DNA of 64,000 nucleotides from positions 4,002-68,001 of IMG/VR virus record IMGVR_UViG_3300046096_000525, one strand, 5' to 3'. Under the pieces are notes generated by a model. That model was not told where the DNA came from, made no database searches, and saw only the letters and a program-made list of their open reading frames with translations. Shown here one piece after another: positions 10,625-36,267 of the stretch. How positions within the stretch are numbered: the first letter of the stretch is position 1; each line of letters opens with the position of its first letter. The translations under genes were made by a program, and so were the position numbers. This DNA comes from a virus.

Positions 10625-12163
10625 ATGTTAAAAATAGGAAAAGAGGCAAAAGAATCTCTTATCAGGGGTATTAACGTAGTATCAGATGCAGTCAAGACAA
10701 CGATGGGGGCAGAAGGTAAGACAGTTATTATCGAGAATAAAATGGGATTCAAACCTCACATTACTAAAGATGGGGTAACAGTAGCCGAGAGTATCTTACT
10801 AGAAGATGCTTACGAAGAGATTGGTGCCAAGTTGATCAAAGAAGCCGCAAGAAGAACGGTTGATTTAGTAGGAGATGGTACAACTACAGCCACGGTTATC
10901 ACACAAGAGTTGATAAACAGAGGTTTAGAGAAACTAGAATCCGGAGTATCACACGTAGAGTTAAGAGAAGGTATGGCTATTGCAATCGAAGATGTAAAGC
11001 TTGCCCTGAAAGGCTTGAAGAAAGAGGTTGGTGAAAAAGAGGTAAAGCAAATAGCTACTATCTCTGCAAATAATGATGCCGTAGTAGGAGAAATTATAGC
11101 TGACGTATACAAGAAGATTGGCGTAGAAGGAACGGTTGATGTACAAGAAGGTGTAGCAAAAGACACTACAGTTAATTACATCGAAGGTATGTCACTAGAT
11201 AGAGGTTGGGCTTTGCCACACTTTGTATCTGACACAAGTACCGGAACAGCAGAACTTAATGACACTTATATCTTGATCTACGATGGTAAGATCAATGCAG
11301 TAAACGATATTGCAGAACACGTAAGAAAGGCCCAAACAGAAGGTAAAGGATTGCACATTTTTGCTGAAGATTTAGACGAAGGTGTTATGACAATGCTTGT
11401 CAAAAGTAAAATGCAAGGTACATTCAGAGTTACCGTTACTATGAACCCAGATTTTGGAACCAATAGAACTAGTATCTTAGAGGACCTAGCAATATTTACT
11501 GGAGGAGAAGTTTTCACGCCTAAGTTCTCTACAAAAGTAGTACTAGGACATGCTGCAAAAACAATCTCAGACAAAAGTAGAACAGTTATAATTACAGATA
11601 CCGGAAGCCAAGAGCTTTTAGACAGAATTGAAGTGTTAAAAACTCAAGTTGAGAACACAGAAGACGTTGTAGACAAAGCTAAACTGGTAAAAAGGTTGTC
11701 AAACTTGAGAAATGCCGTGGCTATTGTAACAGTTGGTGGAGTTACCGATCTTGAAGTTAAAGAAAAGAAAGATAGGATTGATGATGCTGTTAGTGCTGTA
11801 CGATCTGCACTAGAAGGTGGATTTGTTGCCGGTGGAGGATCAACTTTATTATATATTTCCAAGTACAAAATGAAGAAAAAGCTGAAAGGCGGCCAAAAAG
11901 ATGGATATGAGTTGTTGAAAGCAGCTATCCAGAAGCCTTTTGAGCAAATTTTGTTGAATGCTGGGTTAGACAAAGACAAATACGAGCCTAGACTTAGAGT
12001 TTACGGTAAAGGTATCAATGTCAAAACTAGAAAAGTAGAAAATTTACTAGAAAGAGGAGTTATTGACTCAGCTAAAGTAGTAGAAGTTTCTTTAGAGAAT
12101 GCTAATTCAGTAGCCTCACTAGTACTACAAACAGATTGTATAATCACAAGTGCCGGACTATAA
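10625..12163 (+). CDS. groEL: GroEL-like chaperonin (Cpn60 family)
   Basis: DLVGDGTTTATVITQ matches GroEL AGDGTTTATVLA motif; VAGGGSTLLY ~ GroEL VAGGG; length 512 aa with equatorial/apical layout; lacks GGM C-terminal repeat. Confidence 0.8.
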   Translation: MLKIGKEAKESLIRGINVVSDAVKTTMGAEGKTVIIENKMGFKPHITKDGVTVAESILLEDAYEEIGAKLIKEAARRTVDLVGDGTTTATVITQELINRGLEKLESGVSHVELREGMAIAIEDVKLALKGLKKEVGEKEVKQIATISANNDAVVGEIIADVYKKIGVEGTVDVQEGVAKDTTVNYIEGMSLDRGWALPHFVSDTSTGTAELNDTYILIYDGKINAVNDIAEHVRKAQTEGKGLHIFAEDLDEGVMTMLVKSKMQGTFRVTVTMNPDFGTNRTSILEDLAIFTGGEVFTPKFSTKVVLGHAAKTISDKSRTVIITDTGSQELLDRIEVLKTQVENTEDVVDKAKLVKRLSNLRNAVAIVTVGGVTDLEVKEKKDRIDDAVSAVRSALEGGFVAGGGSTLLYISKYKMKKKLKGGQKDGYELLKAAIQKPFEQILLNAGLDKDKYEPRLRVYGKGINVKTRKVENLLERGVIDSAKVVEVSLENANSVASLVLQTDCIITSAGL

Positions 12164-13460: not shown

Positions 13461-13706
13461 ATGGCAGCAGTAGAAGCAATCAAATTTTCAGCAACATGGT
13501 GTGGACCATGCCGAGTAGTAGGTAAAGCTCTAGAAGGAGTAGACTTAAAACAAGTAGACATTGACACAGACGTTGATGGATTAGCAAAAGAGTACAATAT
13601 CCGTAGTGTACCTACAATAGTATTTGTAAAAGACGGCCAAGAGGTAGCAAGACATGCCGGACTTATTACTAAAGCAGAGTACGAAACTAAACTAGCCTCT
13701 TTGTAA
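13461..13706 (+). CDS. trxA: thioredoxin
   Basis: WCGPC active-site motif at residues 13-17, 81 aa, thioredoxin-fold length and C-terminal pattern. Confidence 0.8.
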   Translation: MAAVEAIKFSATWCGPCRVVGKALEGVDLKQVDIDTDVDGLAKEYNIRSVPTIVFVKDGQEVARHAGLITKAEYETKLASL

Positions 13707-13707
13707 G

Positions 13708-14394
13708 ATGATTAATATTTGGAAAGGTAAGAAATACCTAAAGTTAGAGCATTGTACATCCCCATGGTATACCACAAACAGAGGAAAAGACTTCTGCTTA
13801 AAGCATCATTTTACAGTATGGGGTTGGTCCCTAGCTACTAGAATGGTAAAGAGAGGATATAAAGAAGAGTACGTAAGAAAAGCAGAGTACGTATTTGGGC
13901 ATGTAAGTCCAGTACTTACTAAAAAGTATGATGCAGTAGATAAATATGAAGACCATCTAGACTTATTCTGCAAGACAGATTACCCAACACTGTACTGTTA
14001 CAATATTGAGGGAGATTTGCTAGGAAGAATAGACGACCTTAAGTGGATGTTCACCCATAACTGTGTAGCTGATAAAAATCTAGCAGGTGTGGCCTACTCT
14101 CAGACAGAGGGAGGATATATAGGATACTCACACAGAGCAAGACAAATATTCAAGATAGGGGACAAACTGTTTGACCCTAAGTACGAGCCACAAGAATTAG
14201 ACTATGAAGAGTGGGAGTGGGCAGGATTCTTACAAGACCAAGTAAGAGTACAGAAAGAGCATAACGATCTAGGAGAAGAGTACATTGTACCTATCAAAGA
14301 TGTAATACCTTTCAAGAAAAGAGGATCTGTACTTATCAAGACCCCTAAGGAAGCACGTAAAGCAGCACATAATTTCTCTAAGTATGTTAGCTAG
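13708..14394 (+). CDS. hypothetical protein (228 aa)
   Basis: ORF track. Confidence 0.5.
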   Translation: MINIWKGKKYLKLEHCTSPWYTTNRGKDFCLKHHFTVWGWSLATRMVKRGYKEEYVRKAEYVFGHVSPVLTKKYDAVDKYEDHLDLFCKTDYPTLYCYNIEGDLLGRIDDLKWMFTHNCVADKNLAGVAYSQTEGGYIGYSHRARQIFKIGDKLFDPKYEPQELDYEEWEWAGFLQDQVRVQKEHNDLGEEYIVPIKDVIPFKKRGSVLIKTPKEARKAAHNFSKYVS

Positions 14395-14617
14395 TATATT
14401 AGAACAGTACGAAGACGAAGAGTTCTTGATAGCCGATGGATTTAATCAAGCTGTAATAGGTGTAGAAGAGTCTACAATGAGACTGATCTATTCTGTCAAT
14501 AAGTGTATAGAGATATTAACAGAGGATATGTCAGAGGAAGATGCAATAGAGTACTTCAACTATAATGTCCTTAGAAGCTATGTTGGAGAGAAGACCCCAA
14601 TATGGTGTAACCCATAA
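14384..14617 (+). CDS. hypothetical acidic protein (77 aa)
   Basis: ORF track. Confidence 0.45.
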   Translation: MLASILEQYEDEEFLIADGFNQAVIGVEESTMRLIYSVNKCIEILTEDMSEEDAIEYFNYNVLRSYVGEKTPIWCNP

Positions 14618-14637: not shown

Positions 14638-14663
14638 CCCCGGAGAGATCTGGGGTTTTTTTT
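14638..14663 (+). terminator. rho-independent terminator CCCCGGA-GAGA-TCTGGGG + T8
   Basis: 7-bp GC stem with GAGA loop followed by TTTTTTTT, 21 nt after stop of 14384..14617. Confidence 0.7.
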
Positions 14664-14835
14664 ATACCCCCCCACCCTTTTATACCCTAGTGATTTAGTA
14701 GGGATTATAAATTTTTTTATATCAATTTTTTAAAACTGATTTTATGTGGGGGACACCCTAACCACCATACAGAAAACCCCGGCAAGATTCGGAGGATTTT
14801 ACCCCACCCCCCCTATGTGTCCAGCCAGATTACTT

Positions 14836-14851
14836 TGTGCCTTAAACAGCC
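14836..14851 (+). repeat. 16-nt repeat TGTGCCTTAAACAGCC (copy 1; copy 2 at 35881-35896)
   Basis: Exact 16/16 match (17-18 with flanking T/G) in two non-coding regions. Confidence 0.6.
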
Positions 14852-15375
14852 TCTAAAAGTTTTTGACTTTTCCAACTTATTTTTATACTATTTGTCTATA
14901 GTATGTTAGTATGTTATAGTGTTAGCTTATACTAGAGTGTAGTCCTGTCCAGGTGACTAGGTTCTAGGCCAGCTTATTTAGACTAGTTACATATAATATA
15001 ATTGTTAATAACTTTCTACATTTTTATTTGTGTATTAAATTCTTTTTACAGGTCGCCAAAAAATACCCCTATTTTGCTCCTGTTGCATTATCTCAGAGTT
15101 TTAATGTTACGATATCATGGAGGGGTTATCGTGTCTTAAATCGCTTTATTTAGCCTTATATGATAATCCTTTGCGAAGCCCCGAAAACACTAGGATAAAA
15201 AAATATTTAAACTTTTTTACATAAACGCTTGTTTATATCATATATAGTTGTATATTTGCAAAGGGTTAGAGAGAAAGGCACTAGCTTTTTACCTAACTAG
15301 CTGATTATCAGCACGTTCCTTGAAATACTGAATACTATCTTACAAGGCTAAGCCAGTAGGCCTAAGATTACCGGC

Positions 15376-15384
15376 ACTCTCACA
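15376..15384 (+). promoter_or_regulatory. ACTCTCACA box 9 nt upstream of ATG 15394
   Basis: Member of recurrent AACTCTCACA-N1-9-ATG motif (five copies 15376-18426). Confidence 0.4.
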
Positions 15385-15393
15385 TTATATACT

Positions 15394-15633
15394 ATGACAA
15401 ATTTTGAAGCAATTAACAAGTTCATGTACTTCGCCCACAACTTCGGTTACAACTTCATTGAAGAAGTTTGGAAATCCGAGCCTAACATGGCAAACCACTT
15501 AAGAAGTAAGTTCAACAGCTACGCCCAACAGCAAGGCAACGGGACAAACGGGTTCTTCAGGTGGTTTATGGAGCTAGACAACGGCAACAAAGAAACGTTG
15601 ACCGATTGGATTGGAGCAAATTACAAAGGATAA
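15394..15633 (+). CDS. hypothetical protein (79 aa)
   Basis: ORF track; preceded by CTCTCACA box, followed by GC hairpin. Confidence 0.5.
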   Translation: MTNFEAINKFMYFAHNFGYNFIEEVWKSEPNMANHLRSKFNSYAQQQGNGTNGFFRWFMELDNGNKETLTDWIGANYKG

Positions 15634-15642
15634 ATTAACCAA

Positions 15643-15660
15643 GCCCCTCGCAAGGGGGGC
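15643..15660 (+). terminator. GC hairpin GCCCCTC-GCAA-GGGGGGC (intercistronic; weak U-tract)
   Basis: 7-bp GC stem; followed by TATTT then AACTCTCACA box and next ATG. Confidence 0.45.
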
Positions 15661-15665
15661 TATTT

Positions 15666-15675
15666 AACTCTCACA
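15666..15675 (+). promoter_or_regulatory. AACTCTCACA box 2 nt upstream of ATG 15678
   Basis: Recurrent motif. Confidence 0.4.
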
Positions 15676-15677
15676 TT

Positions 15678-15863
15678 ATGAATAAGACTTATTACCACAT
15701 TTTAGAGTACGGAAGCTACGGGGAAGTAGGTTACCAAGGCTATTACCTAACACTAGAGGAAGCTAAACAGGAAGTTGCTCATTTATATGACTGCTTTCCT
15801 AATTCGGATTTTCAAGTTGAACCCTCTAATAGTAAGAGGGAGCCTGTTAACGTAACAATTTAA
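15678..15863 (+). CDS. hypothetical protein (61 aa)
   Basis: ORF track. Confidence 0.45.
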   Translation: MNKTYYHILEYGSYGEVGYQGYYLTLEEAKQEVAHLYDCFPNSDFQVEPSNSKREPVNVTI

Positions 15864-15872
15864 ACTCTCACA
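15863..15872 (+). promoter_or_regulatory. AACTCTCACA box 2 nt upstream of ATG 15875 (overlaps previous stop)
   Basis: Recurrent motif. Confidence 0.4.
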
Positions 15873-15874
15873 GT

Positions 15875-16192
15875 ATGAACGCAAAAAAATTTCCGATAGG
15901 GGTTCAAAGGAAGATTGACACTATCAACGCAATGATTGAAAGCATAAACGAGTCAGAAGTTGTACCTTACACTTATGCAGGTGGTACTTGGCCTTATGCA
16001 GTTTACATCAAGCCTATAGTTATTAAGAACCAATTCGTCACCATCGAGGGCGGTAAGTACGGGACTTATATTGAAGGCAAGGAAAGGTATAATGTTAACA
16101 AGGTCTCCACATTTGGGGACGATTACTGCAGGAAACATCTAGAGTACACTCTAGGGATTATTCTGAAGACATTCAAGAAGACATTAAACTAA
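15875..16192 (+). CDS. hypothetical protein (105 aa)
   Basis: ORF track. Confidence 0.5.
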   Translation: MNAKKFPIGVQRKIDTINAMIESINESEVVPYTYAGGTWPYAVYIKPIVIKNQFVTIEGGKYGTYIEGKERYNVNKVSTFGDDYCRKHLEYTLGIILKTFKKTLN

Positions 16193-16201
16193 TACTAATC
16201 A

Positions 16202-16219
16202 GCCCCTCGAAAGGGGGGC
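16202..16219 (+). terminator. GC hairpin GCCCCTC-GAAA-GGGGGGC (intercistronic)
   Basis: 7-bp stem, GAAA loop, followed by TTAATC. Confidence 0.45.
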
Positions 16220-16321
16220 TTAATCTAAACATCATGAAATATTTTTTACAGCATCAGAAACCGCAAATCATTTTTTGTATTATTGTAGCACTTTATTTTC
16301 TAACTAGATTTTTATACTAAC

Positions 16322-16549
16322 ATGAAGACACTAACAGAAATCCAGATTGAAGCCCACAAGTTGTACATGCAACTTGAGCTAGGACCTTTTTTTAATACTT
16401 ACCACGATTGGATGTATGACCTACTGCAGGAGATTGATTACCTGGAGGAGGATGATGAAGAGGATTATAAGACAGCAGAAGACATTCTAACAAAATGCAA
16501 GGCTCTGATCAAAGCACAAAAAATATTACTAACAGCAAACCTAAACTAA
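16322..16549 (+). CDS. hypothetical highly acidic protein (75 aa; EEDDEEDYK)
   Basis: ORF track. Confidence 0.45.
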   Translation: MKTLTEIQIEAHKLYMQLELGPFFNTYHDWMYDLLQEIDYLEEDDEEDYKTAEDILTKCKALIKAQKILLTANLN

Positions 16550-16716
16550 GCTATGCGAAACCTAGAAAATTACATTGTACATTGTCCAGTTGAAAACATC
16601 CAGTGGGATGAGTACGACAGACCTTATGAGCAAACACCAAATGGTAAAATAATGCTCTCGATCAAATCCGGAACTCTCCAGACAAAGATCAAAACCAGAA
16701 ACGTTTAATTAATAAC

Positions 16717-16734
16717 CGGCCCTCTACGGGGGGC
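16717..16734 (+). terminator. GC hairpin (CCGGCCCTC-TAC-GGGGGGC), intercistronic
   Basis: GC-rich stem followed by TTAATA then ACTCTCACA box. Confidence 0.35.
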
Positions 16735-16739
16735 TTAAT

Positions 16740-16748
16740 ACTCTCACA
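16740..16748 (+). promoter_or_regulatory. ACTCTCACA box 2 nt upstream of ATG 16751
   Basis: Recurrent motif. Confidence 0.4.
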
Positions 16749-16750
16749 CA

Positions 16751-17152
16751 ATGAAAAAAAGATTAGATTGCCAGATGGGTAAAAACCTAAAGATGTCTCC
16801 TGAAACGTATGCATTAAGAACTCAGGTGATGGGTCACGTATACGAAGCTAAGAACCTGTTGAGGTCTCAAGGTATCCAGATGGATCGGGTTGATGTAAGG
16901 ATCACTGATGACTCCGGTAACGGTGCCCTGGGCATGGCGAGATTGAATGACAGGATCATATGGATTAGCTTGAGCAGCCTGAAGCGATGGAAAGCACACC
17001 TCAGGGTCGTAGTATTCCATGAGCTGGTCCACACTCTCACAGGATTTGAGCATGATGACAATTGCCGTCTAATGTGTCCCTGTGTGAAGATCCGACCACT
17101 GGATGAGCAGGAGACTAATAAGTTATTCCTGAAGTACTTCACCAAAAGATAG
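16751..17152 (+). CDS. putative zinc metallopeptidase (HExxH; ImmA/IrrE- or SprT-like)
   Basis: VVVFHELVHTLTGFEHDD: HELVH plus downstream acidic ligand candidates; 133 aa. Confidence 0.45.
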   Translation: MKKRLDCQMGKNLKMSPETYALRTQVMGHVYEAKNLLRSQGIQMDRVDVRITDDSGNGALGMARLNDRIIWISLSSLKRWKAHLRVVVFHELVHTLTGFEHDDNCRLMCPCVKIRPLDEQETNKLFLKYFTKR

Positions 17153-17160
17153 TATTCAAC

Positions 17161-17190
17161 GCCCCTCAAAAAAATGGGGGGCTTTATTTT
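17161..17190 (+). terminator. terminator GCCCCTC-AAAAAAAT-GGGGGGC + TTTATTTT
   Basis: 7-bp GC stem followed by T-rich tract. Confidence 0.55.
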
Positions 17191-17210
17191 GTTTATTAAA
17201 AAATTATTTA

Positions 17211-17218
17211 TATATTTG
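17211..17218 (+). promoter_or_regulatory. -7 box TATATTTG with downstream conserved leader (CCGGCAACGGTGCC...CTAAAAACC)
   Basis: TAnnTTTG match 36 nt upstream of ATG 17254. Confidence 0.45.
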
Positions 17219-17253
17219 TACCGGCAACGGTGCCACACTAAAAACCTTATATC

Positions 17254-18021
17254 ATGGTAGCAAATTTAAACACCAACTTATTCCCGATCATTTCAGTAGG
17301 CATGTACTGCAGTTCATTAGATCCGGATTACATCTTTGATAGTTACATGATCAACCAGGATCACCAGGAAGGTCATATAAACTACGACAGTGAATACTTT
17401 CATGAAAACTTCAGAAACGATCTTTATGTTGCTGCGGTCCAGCAGGTAGCTCAGAACTATCTAGACGGTGCTCATGAGGCAGACGGTATTGAAATTGAAA
17501 TCACTGCTGGAGACATCTACAGTCCTTCGGCTTATAACTTTGCCACTGATCAGATAGAGCTAGCAGTTAAATTTAATAAGACCCGTGTTAAACAGTATGC
17601 TGCAGCTAATGCTGATGAGTTTGACCAGTTCCTACATGATCACTTTACCAGCTATGACGGCTTCCATAGCCACACAGCTAATAACTACTACGCCTGGAAG
17701 GAAGACTTCGCTGATAACAATATCCAGAGCATCGGAGCTGTATTGACATTTATATTCCGTGATGAGATAGAAGACATCCAGAACGGCTTCCTAGATGCCT
17801 GCTATGGTGACCTGTATTACTCTGAGTTCGTAGATACTACAGAACTGGATGAGTCTGTCGCTGAGGTAATACAGTATGTCAGAGATAACTATCAGACCCT
17901 GGATGTAGATCAAACTTTCTACAGTGAATTTAGCCATCTGGATCCGGACCTAGTTCTTAGAACCATGAAACTAGAGATAGATAGAATCGCCAGCCACGTC
18001 TTAGAACTGGAGCTAGCTTAA
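17254..18021 (+). CDS. hypothetical highly acidic protein (255 aa; D/E-rich, aromatic-rich)
   Basis: ORF track; composition reminiscent of DNA-mimic proteins (inference only). Confidence 0.55.
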   Translation: MVANLNTNLFPIISVGMYCSSLDPDYIFDSYMINQDHQEGHINYDSEYFHENFRNDLYVAAVQQVAQNYLDGAHEADGIEIEITAGDIYSPSAYNFATDQIELAVKFNKTRVKQYAAANADEFDQFLHDHFTSYDGFHSHTANNYYAWKEDFADNNIQSIGAVLTFIFRDEIEDIQNGFLDACYGDLYYSEFVDTTELDESVAEVIQYVRDNYQTLDVDQTFYSEFSHLDPDLVLRTMKLEIDRIASHVLELELA

Positions 18022-18034
18022 TAAATACTAATTC

Positions 18035-18054
18035 GGCCACTGTAACAGGTGGCC
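18035..18054 (+). terminator. hairpin GGCCAC-TGTAACAG-GTGGCC
   Basis: Perfect 6-bp GC stem 14 nt after stop; weak U-tract. Confidence 0.4.
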
Positions 18055-18318
18055 TTAAATAACACACAGACATGATAGTATATTTGATCATTACAGGAAT
18101 ATCAATAATGACTCTAAGAGCATTGCAAAGATAGATCACCATGGTAGAGATAGAAATTTTAGAGTTCGGTTTTATGGCAACTATCTTTAAGGGAGGGGTT
18201 GCAGTAGGGGAATTGTTAGGGGTTACATTAGATAACCTACAACAAAGTTTACTACAAGTTTACGATATCAATTTATATAGTACATATAGTTTAAATTAAG
18301 TGTGAGAGCTTATTTATG

Positions 18319-18349
18319 GGAGGGGGGAGCGAAAGTTTCCCTCTTTTTT
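18319..18349 (+). terminator. terminator GGGAG-CGAAAGT-TTTCCC/CCCTC + T7
   Basis: G/C-rich hairpin followed by TCTTTTTTT. Confidence 0.55.
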
Positions 18350-18383
18350 TATGCAAATATTTTTTTTATACCAAACTATTTTG

Positions 18384-18426
18384 TATATTTGTATTGGCAA
18401 TGAAGCCAAGCTAAAACTCTCTCACA
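18384..18426 (+). promoter_or_regulatory. -7 box TATATTTG (18384-18391) + conserved leader GGCAATGAAGCCAAGCTAAAA (18396-18416) + AACTCTCTCACA box (18415-18426)
   Basis: Shows the CTCTCACA box sits in the 5' leader downstream of a canonical promoter, directly before ATG 18427. Confidence 0.5.
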
Positions 18427-18666
18427 ATGATAAGACAATTTATTTTAAAAGAAAATGTATTGACCGATAACATCCTACAAGTGCCTAGCAAAGGTAAAGT
18501 ATTCAGTGGGGGTTATATTGCTTTGATTAAGGAATATCAATATCAAAACCCTTGGATGGATAAAGAAACAATAAAAAGGTTTAGAAGCAAAGATAGATTG
18601 AATGCATACCTAGACAAACATTATTCAGAAGCGGATTTAGATTTTTATGATACTTGTATAGAATAA
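18427..18666 (+). CDS. hypothetical protein (79 aa)
   Basis: ORF track. Confidence 0.45.
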   Translation: MIRQFILKENVLTDNILQVPSKGKVFSGGYIALIKEYQYQNPWMDKETIKRFRSKDRLNAYLDKHYSEADLDFYDTCIE

Positions 18667-18690
18667 GGGGGGGCGAAAGCCCTCTTTTTT
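18667..18690 (+). terminator. terminator GGGC-GAAA-GCCC (G-rich extended) + T7
   Basis: GAAA tetraloop hairpin right after stop, followed by TCTTTTTTT. Confidence 0.55.
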
Positions 18691-18961
18691 TATGCAAAAT
18701 AATTACTAAAACACTTGCGTATGTAAATTCTTTGGCGTATCTTTGTTTTAACAAAAGGGGAAAGGTATGGATGAATTAATTAAATAGGCGGAAGGATTTG
18801 ACAAAGGGCGTGGTTTTGAAATAGAACCGGAAGAGTAGACTCCGTCCTACCTTATAGTGAGTGGTTGGGGAGGGGAACGTTTGGGTAAAGATACGAAAAA
18901 AATCAATACAAAACAAATAAACTTATCAACACAAAATTGTTAATAACTATTTAAAATAAGC

Positions 18962-18993
18962 CTTGCATATATGAAACTATTGGCGTACATTTG
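18962..18993 (+). promoter_or_regulatory. sigma-A-type promoter CTTG(18962-18965)-N20-TACATTTG(18986-18993) with leader TTGCAACGAAGCAG
   Basis: Consensus match 43 nt upstream of ATG 19036. Confidence 0.5.
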
Positions 18994-19035
18994 TCTTGTA
19001 ATTGCAACGAAGCAGTTACTTAACCTTATATTATT

Positions 19036-19383
19036 ATGCAGAATTTCATTATTAACATTGGTTTGAATGTAGGATACATTGAGACAAAAACACAACTAGA
19101 TAGTACCTTATATCATATAGGTATAATATTTAATAACCAAGCTACAACTATCCTTAAGGATAAAAATAATGGCGGTTGTTGGGGTATTGAAAGAACGCTA
19201 ATAGTACAAGGGAGTACTGAATTGACTGAAGAAAGTTTTGGCAATGTAATACAAAGCCTTTGTTTCTTATTGCACCAAGAGGGTATGGCTTATTGTCTAG
19301 GGGATACTTGTACACTAGCGTATGCGGTAGACTATAAGGGGGAGCAATGTTTATTTGAAGAACAATATTTTTTAAGAAAATAA
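19036..19383 (+). CDS. hypothetical protein (115 aa)
   Basis: ORF track. Confidence 0.45.
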   Translation: MQNFIINIGLNVGYIETKTQLDSTLYHIGIIFNNQATTILKDKNNGGCWGIERTLIVQGSTELTEESFGNVIQSLCFLLHQEGMAYCLGDTCTLAYAVDYKGEQCLFEEQYFLRK

Positions 19384-20036: not shown

Positions 20037-20131
20037 TAAATTAATCTCCCCCTTTGTTGTAAGGTTCAAGGGGGGAAATAAAAAAAGTAAAAATAATTAT
20101 CAAAACATTAGGTTCGTATTAGAATAATAAC

Positions 20132-20164
20132 TATATTTGTAACGGCAATTAAGCCAAGCTAAAA
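20132..20164 (+). promoter_or_regulatory. -7 box TATATTTG (20132-20139) + conserved leader GGCAATTAAGCCAAGCTAAAA (20144-20164)
   Basis: Near-identical to leader at 18396-18416. Confidence 0.5.
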
Positions 20165-35589: not shown

Positions 35590-35746
35590 GATTGAGTGGC
35601 GGAATATGGCACTAGCTAAGGGTTTTACCGATAGCTAATGTCTTGGTAAACGCAAGGAGGGCAAAGAAGTTTGTACACAACTGCTGTGAGAGAGGATATT
35701 GCCTGTTGAACTCTCACATTTACAGGTTCGATCCCTGTCTCAATCA
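35590..35746 (+). ncRNA. tRNA-like element with 7-bp acceptor stem (GATTGAG/CTCAATC), canonical T-arm ACAGG-TTCGATC-CCTGT, but ~110-nt insertion containing several hairpins
   Basis: Read by eye; internal hairpins TAGCTA..TAGCTA, TCTTG-GTAAACG-CAAGG, GTGAGAG..CTCTCAC; too long for a canonical tRNA. Confidence 0.3.
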
Positions 35747-35783
35747 CGAAATGATTTGTTGATATATTATTGAAATTGAACAA

Positions 35784-35813
35784 GACGGGGCTTCGATGCC
35801 CCCACCTCCACAA
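35784..35813 (+). ncRNA. ssrA: putative tmRNA acceptor piece 3' module (T-arm GGGGC-TTCGAT-GCCCC + acceptor 3' strand CACCTCC + discriminator A)
   Basis: GACGGGGCTTCGATGCCCCCACCTCCA parallels the conserved tmRNA 3' end (E. coli GGACGGGGGTTCAACTCCCCCCAGCTCCACCA); true 5' boundary of the acceptor piece (P2 partner TTATTG ~35770) uncertain. Confidence 0.45.
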
Positions 35814-35880
35814 AAGTTTCCTTGAACTATAAACAAGGTGGTGGAGTCGCTGAGAAATCAGAGACCTAGGCTTTATCGGT

Positions 35881-35896
35881 TGTGCCTTAAACAGCC
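35881..35896 (+). repeat. 16-nt repeat TGTGCCTTAAACAGCC (copy 2; copy 1 at 14836-14851) inside the presumptive excised loop of the permuted tmRNA precursor
   Basis: Exact repeat. Confidence 0.6.
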
Positions 35897-35904
35897 GGTG
35901 TCAT

Positions 35905-36046
35905 GGGGGTGACAGGTATTGATTGGCAATAAGTAGGTAATAGGGAGAATTAATTTCAAAACTAAACGACAACGTTTACACACTTGGTGGGGTGCAAAAA
36001 AGATTTGCAGCCTAACACGCCTTAGGGGAGCGAAATCCCCTAAATT
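35905..36046 (+). ncRNA. ssrA: putative tmRNA coding piece: 5' acceptor strand GGGGGTG (pairs 7/7 with CACCTCC incl. G3-U70), tag reading frame 35944-36015 (GELISKLNDNVYTLGGVQKRFAA-stop), 3' hairpin GGGGA-GCGAAA-TCCCC
   Basis: 5' end GGGGGTGACAGGTATTGATTGG resembles tmRNA 5' GGGGCUGAUUCUGGAUUCG; tag frame opens right after a UAG, begins GE (as Bacteroidetes tags GENNYALAA) and ends AA; CAATAAG complementary to upstream TTATTG (P2-like). Confidence 0.45.
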
Positions 36047-36120
36047 GGACTTATAGCTCAGTTGGTTAGAGCAGTGCACTCATAATGCAAAGGTCGTATG
36101 TTCGAGTCATACTTGGTCCA
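36047..36120 (+). tRNA. tRNA-Met (or Ile2) with CAU anticodon, 74 nt, no encoded CCA
   Basis: Manual cloverleaf: acceptor GGACTTA/TTGGTCC (one T-T mismatch, one G-U), D-arm GCTC-AGTTGGTTA-GAGC, anticodon arm GTGCA-CTCATAA-TGCAA, T-arm GTATG-TTCGAGT-CATAC, discriminator A. Confidence 0.7.
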
Positions 36121-36267
36121 CTTAGCAAGGCATAAACGATAAGGAATACTCGTCACAGGTTTATGTTAAGTTGCAGACGGGCCGAAATGCTTACGGTTAA
36201 CGGGGCTAACTCATATAGTCCAGAGAGCAAAATCTAACGAGTGACTGATAGGAAAGACTATCAAAAT

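Follow-up and report, generated by a model that had tools for sequence, protein, structure and literature searches.

A 64-kb stretch of viral DNA, positions 4,002-68,001 of the IMG/VR record IMGVR_UViG_3300046096_000525, was analysed as a single strand read 5' to 3' and is referred to below as the window. It belongs to a large phage that encodes GroEL, ribonucleotide reductase, thymidylate synthase, a UvsX-like recombinase and a family-A DNA polymerase, and promoters of the Bacteroidota type (TTTG, 17-21 nucleotides (nt), TAnnTTTG) occur 18 times against 2.9 expected. A DNA search of the phage collection returned no matching cultured relative, and its DNA polymerase shares no more than 43% identity with that of any cultured phage. 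Starting near 15.3 kb, the window carries an array of small genes in which GC-rich hairpins follow gene ends and a short G-free box stands directly ahead of several start codons. We propose, with a probability of roughly 60%, that hairpin and box together serve as conserved punctuation between the cistrons of a hypervariable array, made up of small genes of early or anti-defence type and carried by a phage whose host is of the Bacteroidota type, with roles at both the RNA and the DNA level. The features of the array are given below in the order in which they lie (aa, amino acids; ORF, open reading frame); about 12 related metagenomic lineages, to which the array was compared, are labelled with L and a number.

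15251-15258 (+), promoter P1, a -7-type motif TATATTTG of predicted activity, in repeat family D2 with 17211 and 18384
15259-15344 (+), 5' leader, its first ~55 nt (CAAAGGGTTAGAGAGAAAGGCACT...GATTATCAG) conserved in distant relatives (also L001, L005, L007, L025, L039)
15345-15375 (+), H-type pseudoknot, stem S1 15345-15348/15360-15363 and stem S2 15352-15357/15370-15375
15376-15384 (+), box 1 ACTCTCACA, 9-nt spacer to ATG 15394 of gene 1
15394-15633 (+), gene 1, 79 aa, no family in ORF and family scans
15642-15661 (+), hairpin 1, AGCCCCTC-GCAA-GGGGGGCT, GNRA loop, U.G pair on the plus strand, -16.2 kcal/mol, z-score -4.0
15666-15675 (+), box 2 AACTCTCACA (ACTCTCACA at 15667-15675), 2-nt spacer to ATG 15678 of gene 2
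15676-15872 (+), gene-2 cassette of 197 bp, the 61-aa gene plus one box, direct repeat AACTCTCACA[T/G]TATGAA on both sides
15678-15863 (+), gene 2, 61 aa, within the 197-bp cassette
15862-15872 (+), box 3 (ACTCTCACA at 15864-15872), 2-nt spacer to ATG 15875 of gene 3
15875-16192 (+), gene 3, 105 aa, conserved anchor gene with 47 homologues
16201-16220 (+), hairpin 2, AGCCCCTC-GAAA-GGGGGGCT, -15.8 kcal/mol, loop UUCG in the L041 orthologue
16234-16320 (+), small hydrophobic ORF of 28 aa, MKYFLQHQKPQIIFC..., right after hairpin 2
16322-16708 (+), genes 4 (75 aa) and 5 (51 aa), ORFs
16718-16735 (+), hairpin 3, GGCCCUC-UACG-GGGGGCU, UNCG loop, -13.0 kcal/mol
16740-16748 (+), box 4 ACTCTCACA, 2-nt spacer to ATG 16751 of gene 6
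16751-17152 (+), gene 6, 133 aa, HExxH metalloprotease-like (phrog_87, E 3.7e-4; Pfam match weak)
17161-17195 (+), terminator T1, hairpin and T-run, end of the array operon
17211-17253 (+), promoter P2, leader hairpin GGCAACGGUGCC and type-B box AACCTTATATC (17243-17253), before gene 7; repeat families D1, D2 and D13
from 17254 (+), gene 7, 255 aa, conserved anchor with the type-B box ahead
18035-18054 (+), GC hairpin following the end of gene 7
18073-18138 (+), possible hydrophobic ORF of 21 aa right after that hairpin, with a counterpart in L045 and L007
18141-18299 (+), gene 8, 52 aa, directly ahead of the anti-box
18294-18316 (+), anti-box element AATTAA-GTGTGAGAG-CTTATTTA, core 18300-18308 the reverse complement of CTCTCACAC
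18318-18352 (+), terminator T2, the repeat that bounds the gene-9 cassette on its left
18384-18426 (+), promoter P3 TATATTTG (18384-18391), leader hairpin GGCAAUGAAGCC and box 5, before gene 9
18414-18426 (+), box 5, variant AAACTCTCTCACA (ACTCTCTCACA-type), abutting ATG 18427 of gene 9 (0-nt spacer)
from 18427 (+), gene 9, 79 aa, in a ~343-bp cassette with P3 and T3
18665-18694 (+), terminator T3, after gene 9
20046-20076 (+), hairpin after gene 11, loop UUUGUUGUAAGGUU complementary to type-B boxes, a weaker lead

The exact 9-mer ACTCTCACA occurs six times in the 64 kb, where 0.65 copies are expected and none of 100 shuffles reaches six. Four of these copies, together with the variant box 5, stand 0-9 nt ahead of start codons within 3.1 kb, and start-proximal boxes are confined to 15.3-18.5 kb. 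The two other exact copies are unrelated to gene starts: that at 17033-17041 lies in frame within the HELVH zinc-motif codons of gene 6 and is a chance occurrence, and that at 35710 forms one arm of a local stem upstream of a match to a permuted transfer-messenger RNA (tmRNA). A link between motif and gene starts had been put forward in a sequence-only reading of this DNA; the observation is confirmed, and the interpretation given with it is supported in part. The same reading had placed five boxes 2-9 nt before an ATG, which holds for four of them (9, 2, 2 and 2 nt) and fails for box 5, which has no spacer and in whose place relatives carry ACTCTCACA without the extra TC. Among seven representative loci, 21 of the 29 copies of TCTCACA lie 0-10 nt ahead of an ATG. 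The distance from box 1 to its ATG is 9-10 nt in L001, L043, L044 and L046, and the core of box 4, CTCTCACAC, is retained in L001, L041 and L042, with variation in its first base and in the spacer.

The leaders of the 11 array genes between 15394 and 19036 are C-rich and nearly G-free, with A at -3 in 10 of them and an A content of 55-64% at -14 to -11. At least four C residues are present at -16 to -1 in 9/11 array leaders versus 3/89 of the other plus-strand genes of the window; these 89 genes have A-rich leaders, and the box is not a phage-wide initiation signal. Box leaders are predicted to be unpaired, and position -6 is a C in boxes with a 2-nt spacer. The gap between hairpin and ATG is only 15-25 nt and contains no TAnnTTTG, and box 5 has both a promoter and a leader upstream of it; the box is therefore an element of the 5' leader or initiation region and not a promoter, in agreement with the sequence-only reading, whose TAnnTTTG promoter (18384-18391) and conserved leader ahead of box 5 can be read directly. 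The box is not expected to be able to pair with the anti-Shine-Dalgarno tail of 16S rRNA. The 5' end of the P1 leader (15262-15277) is conserved and purine-rich, reading GGGUUAGAGAGAAAGG in the window's clade and GAGAAAAAGG in a sister clade, and shows partial complementarity to the boxes, which are pyrimidine-rich (CUCUC, with CCUU as the sister-clade form).

The GC hairpins that had been noted after gene ends are present and fold stably: those at 15642-15661, 16201-16220, 16718-16735 and 17161-17182 have energies of -13 to -16 kcal/mol (z -3.2 to -4.0), and those at 18318-18345 and 18665-18687 of -14 to -17 kcal/mol (z -2.3 to -2.8). A proper T-run follows only the hairpins at 17161, 18318 and 18665, and several of those without one probably make better sense as leaky terminators or as stabilisers of RNA. 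The stems are perfect GC helices of 5-8 bp closed by GAAA, GCAA, UACG or UUCG loops. Across 21 distinct hairpins, 87.5% of the positions pair and the covariation score is 0.318 versus 0.157 in shuffles (0/500 reach it); the pair between positions 7 and 14 is C-G ten times, U.G ten times and U-A once, and the loops of orthologous hairpins alternate between GNRA and UNCG. The covarying stems, the loop switch and the strand-specific U.G pairs argue for a role in plus-strand RNA.

RNA-type conservation extends to the leader of gene 1, where the pseudoknot directly abuts box 1. Over seven lineages 97.1% of its cells are paired and 8 of the 10 pairs show compensatory double changes, giving a covariation score of 0.914 versus 0.257 in shuffled alignments (0/500 reach it) and at most 0.295 in slid controls; the alignment was registered by hand, with loop bases trimmed to equal length, and the structure was derived from those same sequences. 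The window's own copy has one A.C mismatch in S2. RNAalifold, applied to the whole leader, returned no consensus fold, and an Rfam search with pseudoknot, hairpin, box and anti-box gave no gathering-level match in the region (two chance-level matches at E<=5). The predicted pseudoknot is a new RNA element with covariation support; like the conserved anti-box and the type-B box, it had gone without mention in the sequence-only reading.

Cassette-like turnover is seen directly when the lineages, which were gathered via the flanking Tad6-like gene, gene 2, gene 3, gene 7, the leader and the anti-box, are compared. Gene content varies among all of them. The 197-bp gene-2 cassette is missing with a precise junction in L001-L004 and L041-L044; the more distant arrays of L007 and L045 also lack it, which points to an insertion in the window's lineage. 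L046 carries a different 46-aa gene between the box and gene 3, and gene-2 homologues occur in other contexts in L022 and L032. The gene-9 cassette (~343 bp; P3, leader, gene 9 and T3, 18427-18694 being part of it) is bracketed by two terminators with CGAAAG loops and is absent from L042, in which positions 171-2697 match window 15859-18357 and positions 2664-2852 match 18666-18852 by BLAST, with a 34-nt overlap inside the terminator repeat. Other genes replace gene 9 in L043, L044 and L046, which align to the window only at anchors and punctuation (14706-15684, 15859-16216, 18291-18433 and 18662-19038). The cassette look that had been pointed out is thus matched by two exact indels and several replacements bounded by punctuation. 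Smaller differences include an in-frame 9-nt indel of the 28-aa ORF in L001/L002 and, in L032, a homologue of this ORF directly 3' of the gene-2 homologue. Homologues of gene 2 came from a large protein database, and its search against viral contigs gave no relatives; a gene-7 profile search added one further distant locus only, an exact 23-mer scan of metagenomes with the leader found only two short contigs, and a gene-8 search recovered close relatives only, none with a variant anti-box.

Within this changing gene content the core CTCTCACA is invariant in eight lineages (window, L001, L041, L042, L043, L044, L046 and L049) ahead of unrelated genes, while its flanks and spacers vary; the gene-3 proteins of these lineages are 65-100% identical. 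The exact sequence is specific to one clade: a sister clade (L007, L039, L040 and L045) has the same architecture with CCTTAYA-type boxes at the orthologous positions. The window's own type-B boxes precede genes 7 and 10. Between the gene-3 leaders of the two clades there are only three C/T transitions in 13 nt, which indicates that the two box types are homologous.

Three transcription units are predicted. Promoters of the array are found only at 15251, 17211, 18384 and ~20130. P1 would transcribe a 135-nt leader and genes 1-6 as far as T1; P2 would serve gene 7, the possible 21-aa ORF and gene 8 up to T2; and P3 would serve gene 9 up to T3. A module of promoter, leader hairpin and CTAAAA (family D1) is common to P2, P3 and the unit near 20130. 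It consists of TAnnTTTG, TA, the hairpin GGCAAYNRAGCC at the predicted mRNA 5' end, CTAAAA and the start region (17176-17243, 18349-18416 and 20097-20164), recurs in distant relatives (L006 ~11170, ~11960 and ~13120; L007 ~13170; L045 ~5680 and ~8040) and may either stabilise the 5' end or serve in regulation.

According to the punctuation model, the G-free box ((A)A-CUCUCACA-NN-AUG) would form the core of a Shine-Dalgarno-independent initiation region that is unstructured, with A at -3 and A-rich sequence around -11 to -14, and may drive or tune translation. The GC tetraloop hairpin upstream would terminate transcripts leakily, stabilise their 3' ends or insulate one cistron from the next. 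Whole transcription units would be punctuated by terminator, TAnnTTTG promoter, 5' leader hairpin and box, with the pseudoknot as an additional element ahead of the first cistron. On the DNA level, the repeated punctuation would supply homology for the insertion, deletion and replacement of cassettes; recombination at shared punctuation would leave it uniform within a clade while the intervening genes turn over, and recombination, beyond selection alone, probably contributes to the uniformity of the boxes.

The anti-box gives rise to a second reading, which is compatible with the first. Within the array the box has a single reverse complement on the same strand, GTGTGAGAG, which lies 1 nt past the gene 8 stop codon, just before T2, where it is unpaired in the predicted fold. 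There is exactly one anti-box in each of the eight box-bearing lineages whose contig extends there (8/8), each 1 nt past the stop codon and ~10-15 nt before an intrinsic terminator. The 14-nt stretch AGTGTGAGAGCTTA is unchanged in all eight, while the upstream gene 8 (two divergent types) and the terminator stem vary. Predicted duplexes of the anti-box with the five box leaders comprise 8-10 bp at -12.1 to -16.1 kcal/mol and are the five best of 104 leaders (next best -10.8, median -5.2 kcal/mol), and the probability that any anti-box 8-mer would turn up by chance in the array's 1777 nt of non-coding DNA is 0.043. A scan of viral contigs with the anti-box 17-mer yielded one further lineage, L049, and one chance match inside coding sequence (L050). 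Directly 3' of the anti-box, CUUAUUUA (18309-18316) is just as invariant and is complementary to (U)AAAUAAG; among the phage's other genes AAATAAG is the motif most often present in the leader (7 leaders), and this complementarity may be an A/T-rich coincidence.

It is conceivable, if rather tentative, that the transcript of genes 7 and 8 acts through its 3' end as an antisense switch on the box. The putative RNA would be the 3' untranslated region (UTR) itself or a processed fragment protected by T2; its seed GUGUGAGAG would pair with the CUCUCACA(Y) of five leaders, those of genes 1, 2, 3, 6 and 9, blocking ribosome access or triggering decay and thereby shutting off the cassette genes jointly. 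The invariance of the box, the regulon-like set of genes and the tolerance of spacings of 0-10 nt suggest that the box has a sequence-specific reader, for which the anti-box is the only concrete candidate. Consistent with this, the conserved box core (CUCUCACA plus Y) is exactly the complementary stretch, the seed is predicted to be single-stranded, the genes of the anti-box transcript have other leaders, and variable box-ATG spacing suits an operator. L049 has one box and one anti-box at opposite ends of a single ~780-nt operon. A second, weaker pair is formed by the type-B box and the loop UGUAAGGUN of the gene-11 hairpin, which is conserved in L001, L006, L007, L025 and L045. The base after GGU in this loop is U (window and L006), A (L045) or G (L007), and the base two positions 5' of CC in the type-B leaders is, respectively, A, A and mostly U; there is one covarying position, and the pairing is significant in L045 only (P 0.0165). 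On a broader, still doubtful view, an 8-9-nt seed GUGUGAGAG would control the cassette array as a small RNA regulon through the identical operator CUCUCACAY in co-regulated start regions, with CCUUAYA and loop UGUAAGGUN as the pair of the sister clade and the pseudoknot adding control of the first cistron; as the operator lies in the punctuation, a newly recombined cassette would automatically be wired into the switch.

Several points weigh against an antisense switch. Hypothesis-free 9-mer complementarity of all leaders against all non-coding DNA gives P 0.51 in the window and is not significant at most loci, which limits the claim. Neither box nor anti-box varies within the clade, which leaves no compensatory covariation, and the eight lineages share ancestry, so that their co-occurrence counts for about one event. 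The anti-box also lies inside a conserved terminator-promoter module (18291-18433) and could be kept as recombination punctuation, and the RNA fragment itself is only predicted, with no promoter of its own seen. Precedents are provided by 3'-UTR-derived RNAs in virulent phages (PMC10914365) and by the C4 antisense RNA of the P1/P7 immI operon (Citron and Schuster 1990, via PMC8198154). In C4 a short recognition sequence is complementary to the translation start region of phage genes, and specificity differs between related phages. A phage-encoded RNA with a short sequence complementary to phage start regions is the shared feature; unlike C4, the RNA proposed here is predicted only, would come from a 3' UTR by a terminator, would address 3-5 separate cistrons and shows no covariation within the clade.

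The punctuation model has weaknesses of its own. We infer all three of its roles, in translation, termination and recombination. Every lineage retains a distance of 9-10 nt between box 1 and its ATG, and spacers of 0, 2 and 4 nt are also tolerated, a pattern that pure codon context does not explain and that suits an operator-type site at least as well. The C at -6 stands where Flavobacterium johnsoniae favours A, and ~90 other genes of the phage have no box, which means that the box is not needed for translation in the host. In close relatives the gene 6 box is not visibly more conserved than its surroundings, with two changes in and next to it, and a box of 10-17 nt is short for homologous recombination, which would have to involve the hairpin and box unit (~45 nt) or microhomology. 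An operator could instead be read by a protein. It is unlikely, though worth considering, that a phage or host RNA-binding protein binds the box (and the pseudoknot in the first cistron) and represses or activates translation. T4 RegA, and T4 gp32 acting on an operator of pseudoknot and unstructured leader, are models for such control: the gene 32 operator consists of a 5' pseudoknot followed by an unstructured leader, and RegA governs a regulon. The array resembles these in that a pseudoknot, here a covarying one adjoining box 1, lies directly upstream of an unstructured leader to the AUG and in that early genes share a leader motif; one 8-mer is invariant ahead of unrelated genes, ATG spacings of 0-10 nt are tolerated, and its clade-specific sequence could follow a co-evolving factor. 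It differs from them in that its sequences are unrelated, no binding protein was identified and the first gene after the pseudoknot varies by lineage, which speaks against autoregulation of a simple kind. The analysis found no candidate RNA-binding protein, the array proteins have no Pfam or PHROG function, and the confidently modelled gene-3 protein matches no known fold.

A function of the box may also be denied altogether, and we regard this as quite improbable: the box would be a passenger leader copied with cassettes by duplication or recombination, where any G-free leader suffices. Its restriction to one compositional island, the different leaders of homologous genes elsewhere (AATCAAATCAA in L022, ACTTTCTATAC and ATCTTTCAGAC in L032) and the changes tolerated in and next to the gene 6 box in L001 would fit such a passenger. 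Against it, the 8-mer is unchanged at every compared box position in DNA that is otherwise only ~70-75% identical, flanks and spacers vary around the constant core, and by a rough estimate made without a tool an 8-mer would survive at one site with a probability of ~0.07 if positions were independent at ~72% identity. A chance origin of the box was rejected on conservation. The two readings at the level of DNA signals are less probable still. Repeats that bound cassettes and the presence of one inverted copy, the anti-box, recall site-specific recombination of the integron attC or shufflon type. The short perfect GC stems, RNA-type tetraloops and strand-specific U.G pairs are unlike attC, and no inversion of the interval was seen in any lineage compared; only a UvsX-like homologous recombinase and no integrase was found among the proteins scanned, which did not include every ORF. 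The integron-like reading was rejected on hairpin anatomy and is very improbable. Least credible of all is a promoter of a phage RNA polymerase giving leaderless transcripts, for which the layout of terminator, signal and gene would speak, along with a loose resemblance of the box context to the T3/T7-class promoter core (..TTAAC.CTCAC..). Box-ATG distances of 0, 2, 4 and 9-10 nt cannot all set the start at the A of the ATG, box 5 lies within a leader downstream of a host-type promoter, and no polymerase domain was found in the larger window proteins scanned (a 1862-aa protein was unmatched, and the scan was not exhaustive); this reading was rejected on spacing.

The punctuation model is most closely paralleled by the PeSL (promoter-early stem-loop) cassettes of T4-type phages (Arbiol et al. 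2010, PMC2839356; Comeau et al. 2014, PMC4122927), in which a stop codon, a poly-G/poly-C stem-loop with G-T pairs and a translation start signal precede small ORFans in hyperplastic regions. Shared features are repeated composite motifs ahead of small genes of no assigned function in a hypervariable region, a stable GC stem-loop between genes (-13 to -17 kcal/mol), and indels and replacements whose boundaries in close relatives fall at the repeats (the 197-bp gene-2 and ~343-bp gene-9 units), with one gene plus one motif as the exact product expected from circle integration or excision. In contrast to PeSLs, the intra-operon units have no promoter and consist of hairpin and leader box only, promoters being present in just three inter-operon units, and the start signal is a G-free box and not a Shine-Dalgarno sequence, in a Bacteroidota-type setting. 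By analogy, the array would fit a Bacteroidota counterpart of PeSL cassettes whose shared signal is a non-Shine-Dalgarno leader box. In F. johnsoniae, A at -3, A at -12/-13 and low structure are positive determinants of initiation (Baez et al. 2019, PMC6847099). The array leaders are similar to such 'Kozak-like' regions of Bacteroidia in the lack of a Shine-Dalgarno sequence, A at -3, A-rich -11 to -14 and the unstructured leader, but differ in having a specific invariant C/U-rich 8-mer at -10 to -3 with C at -6, limited to one gene array and missing from the phage's other genes.

Most of 15.3-18.5 kb lies within a compositional island with a GC content of 0.38-0.45 and a GC skew near 0 (~0.2 elsewhere); box 5 and its gene (18414-18666) lie just beyond its edge. 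A 228-aa protein encoded just upstream of the array contains a Tad6 (type I Thoeris inhibitor) domain (E 1.2e-13), and the gene after Tad6 in L045 (2781-3679) weakly matches Acb2/Tad1-hairpin, which indicates that the array adjoins an anti-defence locus; an early or anti-defence context, as had been surmised from the cassette look, is plausible. The segment directly upstream of the array (13461-14617) comprises a thioredoxin gene, the gene for the Tad6-domain protein and a 77-aa gene. Nine of the 10 proteins scanned between 15394 and 19383 match no family or a function-unknown family only. The AlphaFold model of the gene-3 protein (predicted local distance difference test score, pLDDT, 90.9) shows a helix, a small beta-sheet and a helix and has no match among PDB folds at E<=0.001, and PDB sequence searches with genes 3 and 7 gave no matches.

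Some ~600 nt of non-coding DNA (14657-15250) separate an upstream terminator from P1. This stretch contains the C-runs ATACCCCCCCACCC and TTACCCCACCCCCCC, is ~70% conserved in L043, L044, L046 and L049, and might function as an origin, as a set of iterons or in regulation; at the equivalent place L007 (10967-11036) has four tandem 18-bp repeats TTAGAATTTTGACTATAT. The repeat AATTGTTAATAAC, with the 9-bp palindrome GTTA-A-TAAC, is found at 14997-15012, 18932-18947 and 19122-19137 and in L045 (~6740) and L007 (~14245); two of the window copies sit upstream of promoters, and its form suggests an operator to which a dimeric DNA-binding protein would bind. Farther away, the GroEL-like chaperonin is encoded at 10625-12163 (phrog_5725, E 3.8e-125), and the distant relative L022 has both GroEL and GroES. 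Rfam identifies a permuted (two-piece) tmRNA at 35754-36015 (+) and 36047-36121 (+), with 51.1 bits against a gathering threshold of 47, adjoining tRNA-Met, an unusual element for a Bacteroidota-type phage. Just upstream of it, the stem CUGUGAGAG...CUCUCACAU (35677-35745) includes the stray box copy and its complement and is followed by the T-arm-like GGTTCGATCCCTG.

The pseudoknot is new whichever reading holds. If a single short RNA seed does act on the boxes, it would be one of few instances in which a virulent-type phage controls a set of swappable accessory or anti-defence genes together, and it would explain why the punctuation is identical despite gene turnover. If hairpin and box are the punctuation of the array, the shuffling of 'regulatory cassettes' known from T4-type phages would extend to phages of Bacteroidota, punctuated there by a translation-start box in place of a promoter plus Shine-Dalgarno sequence, and the box would provide a defined, invariant non-Shine-Dalgarno leader element that lends itself to direct tests of its effect on initiation in a phylum whose start-site selection is poorly understood.

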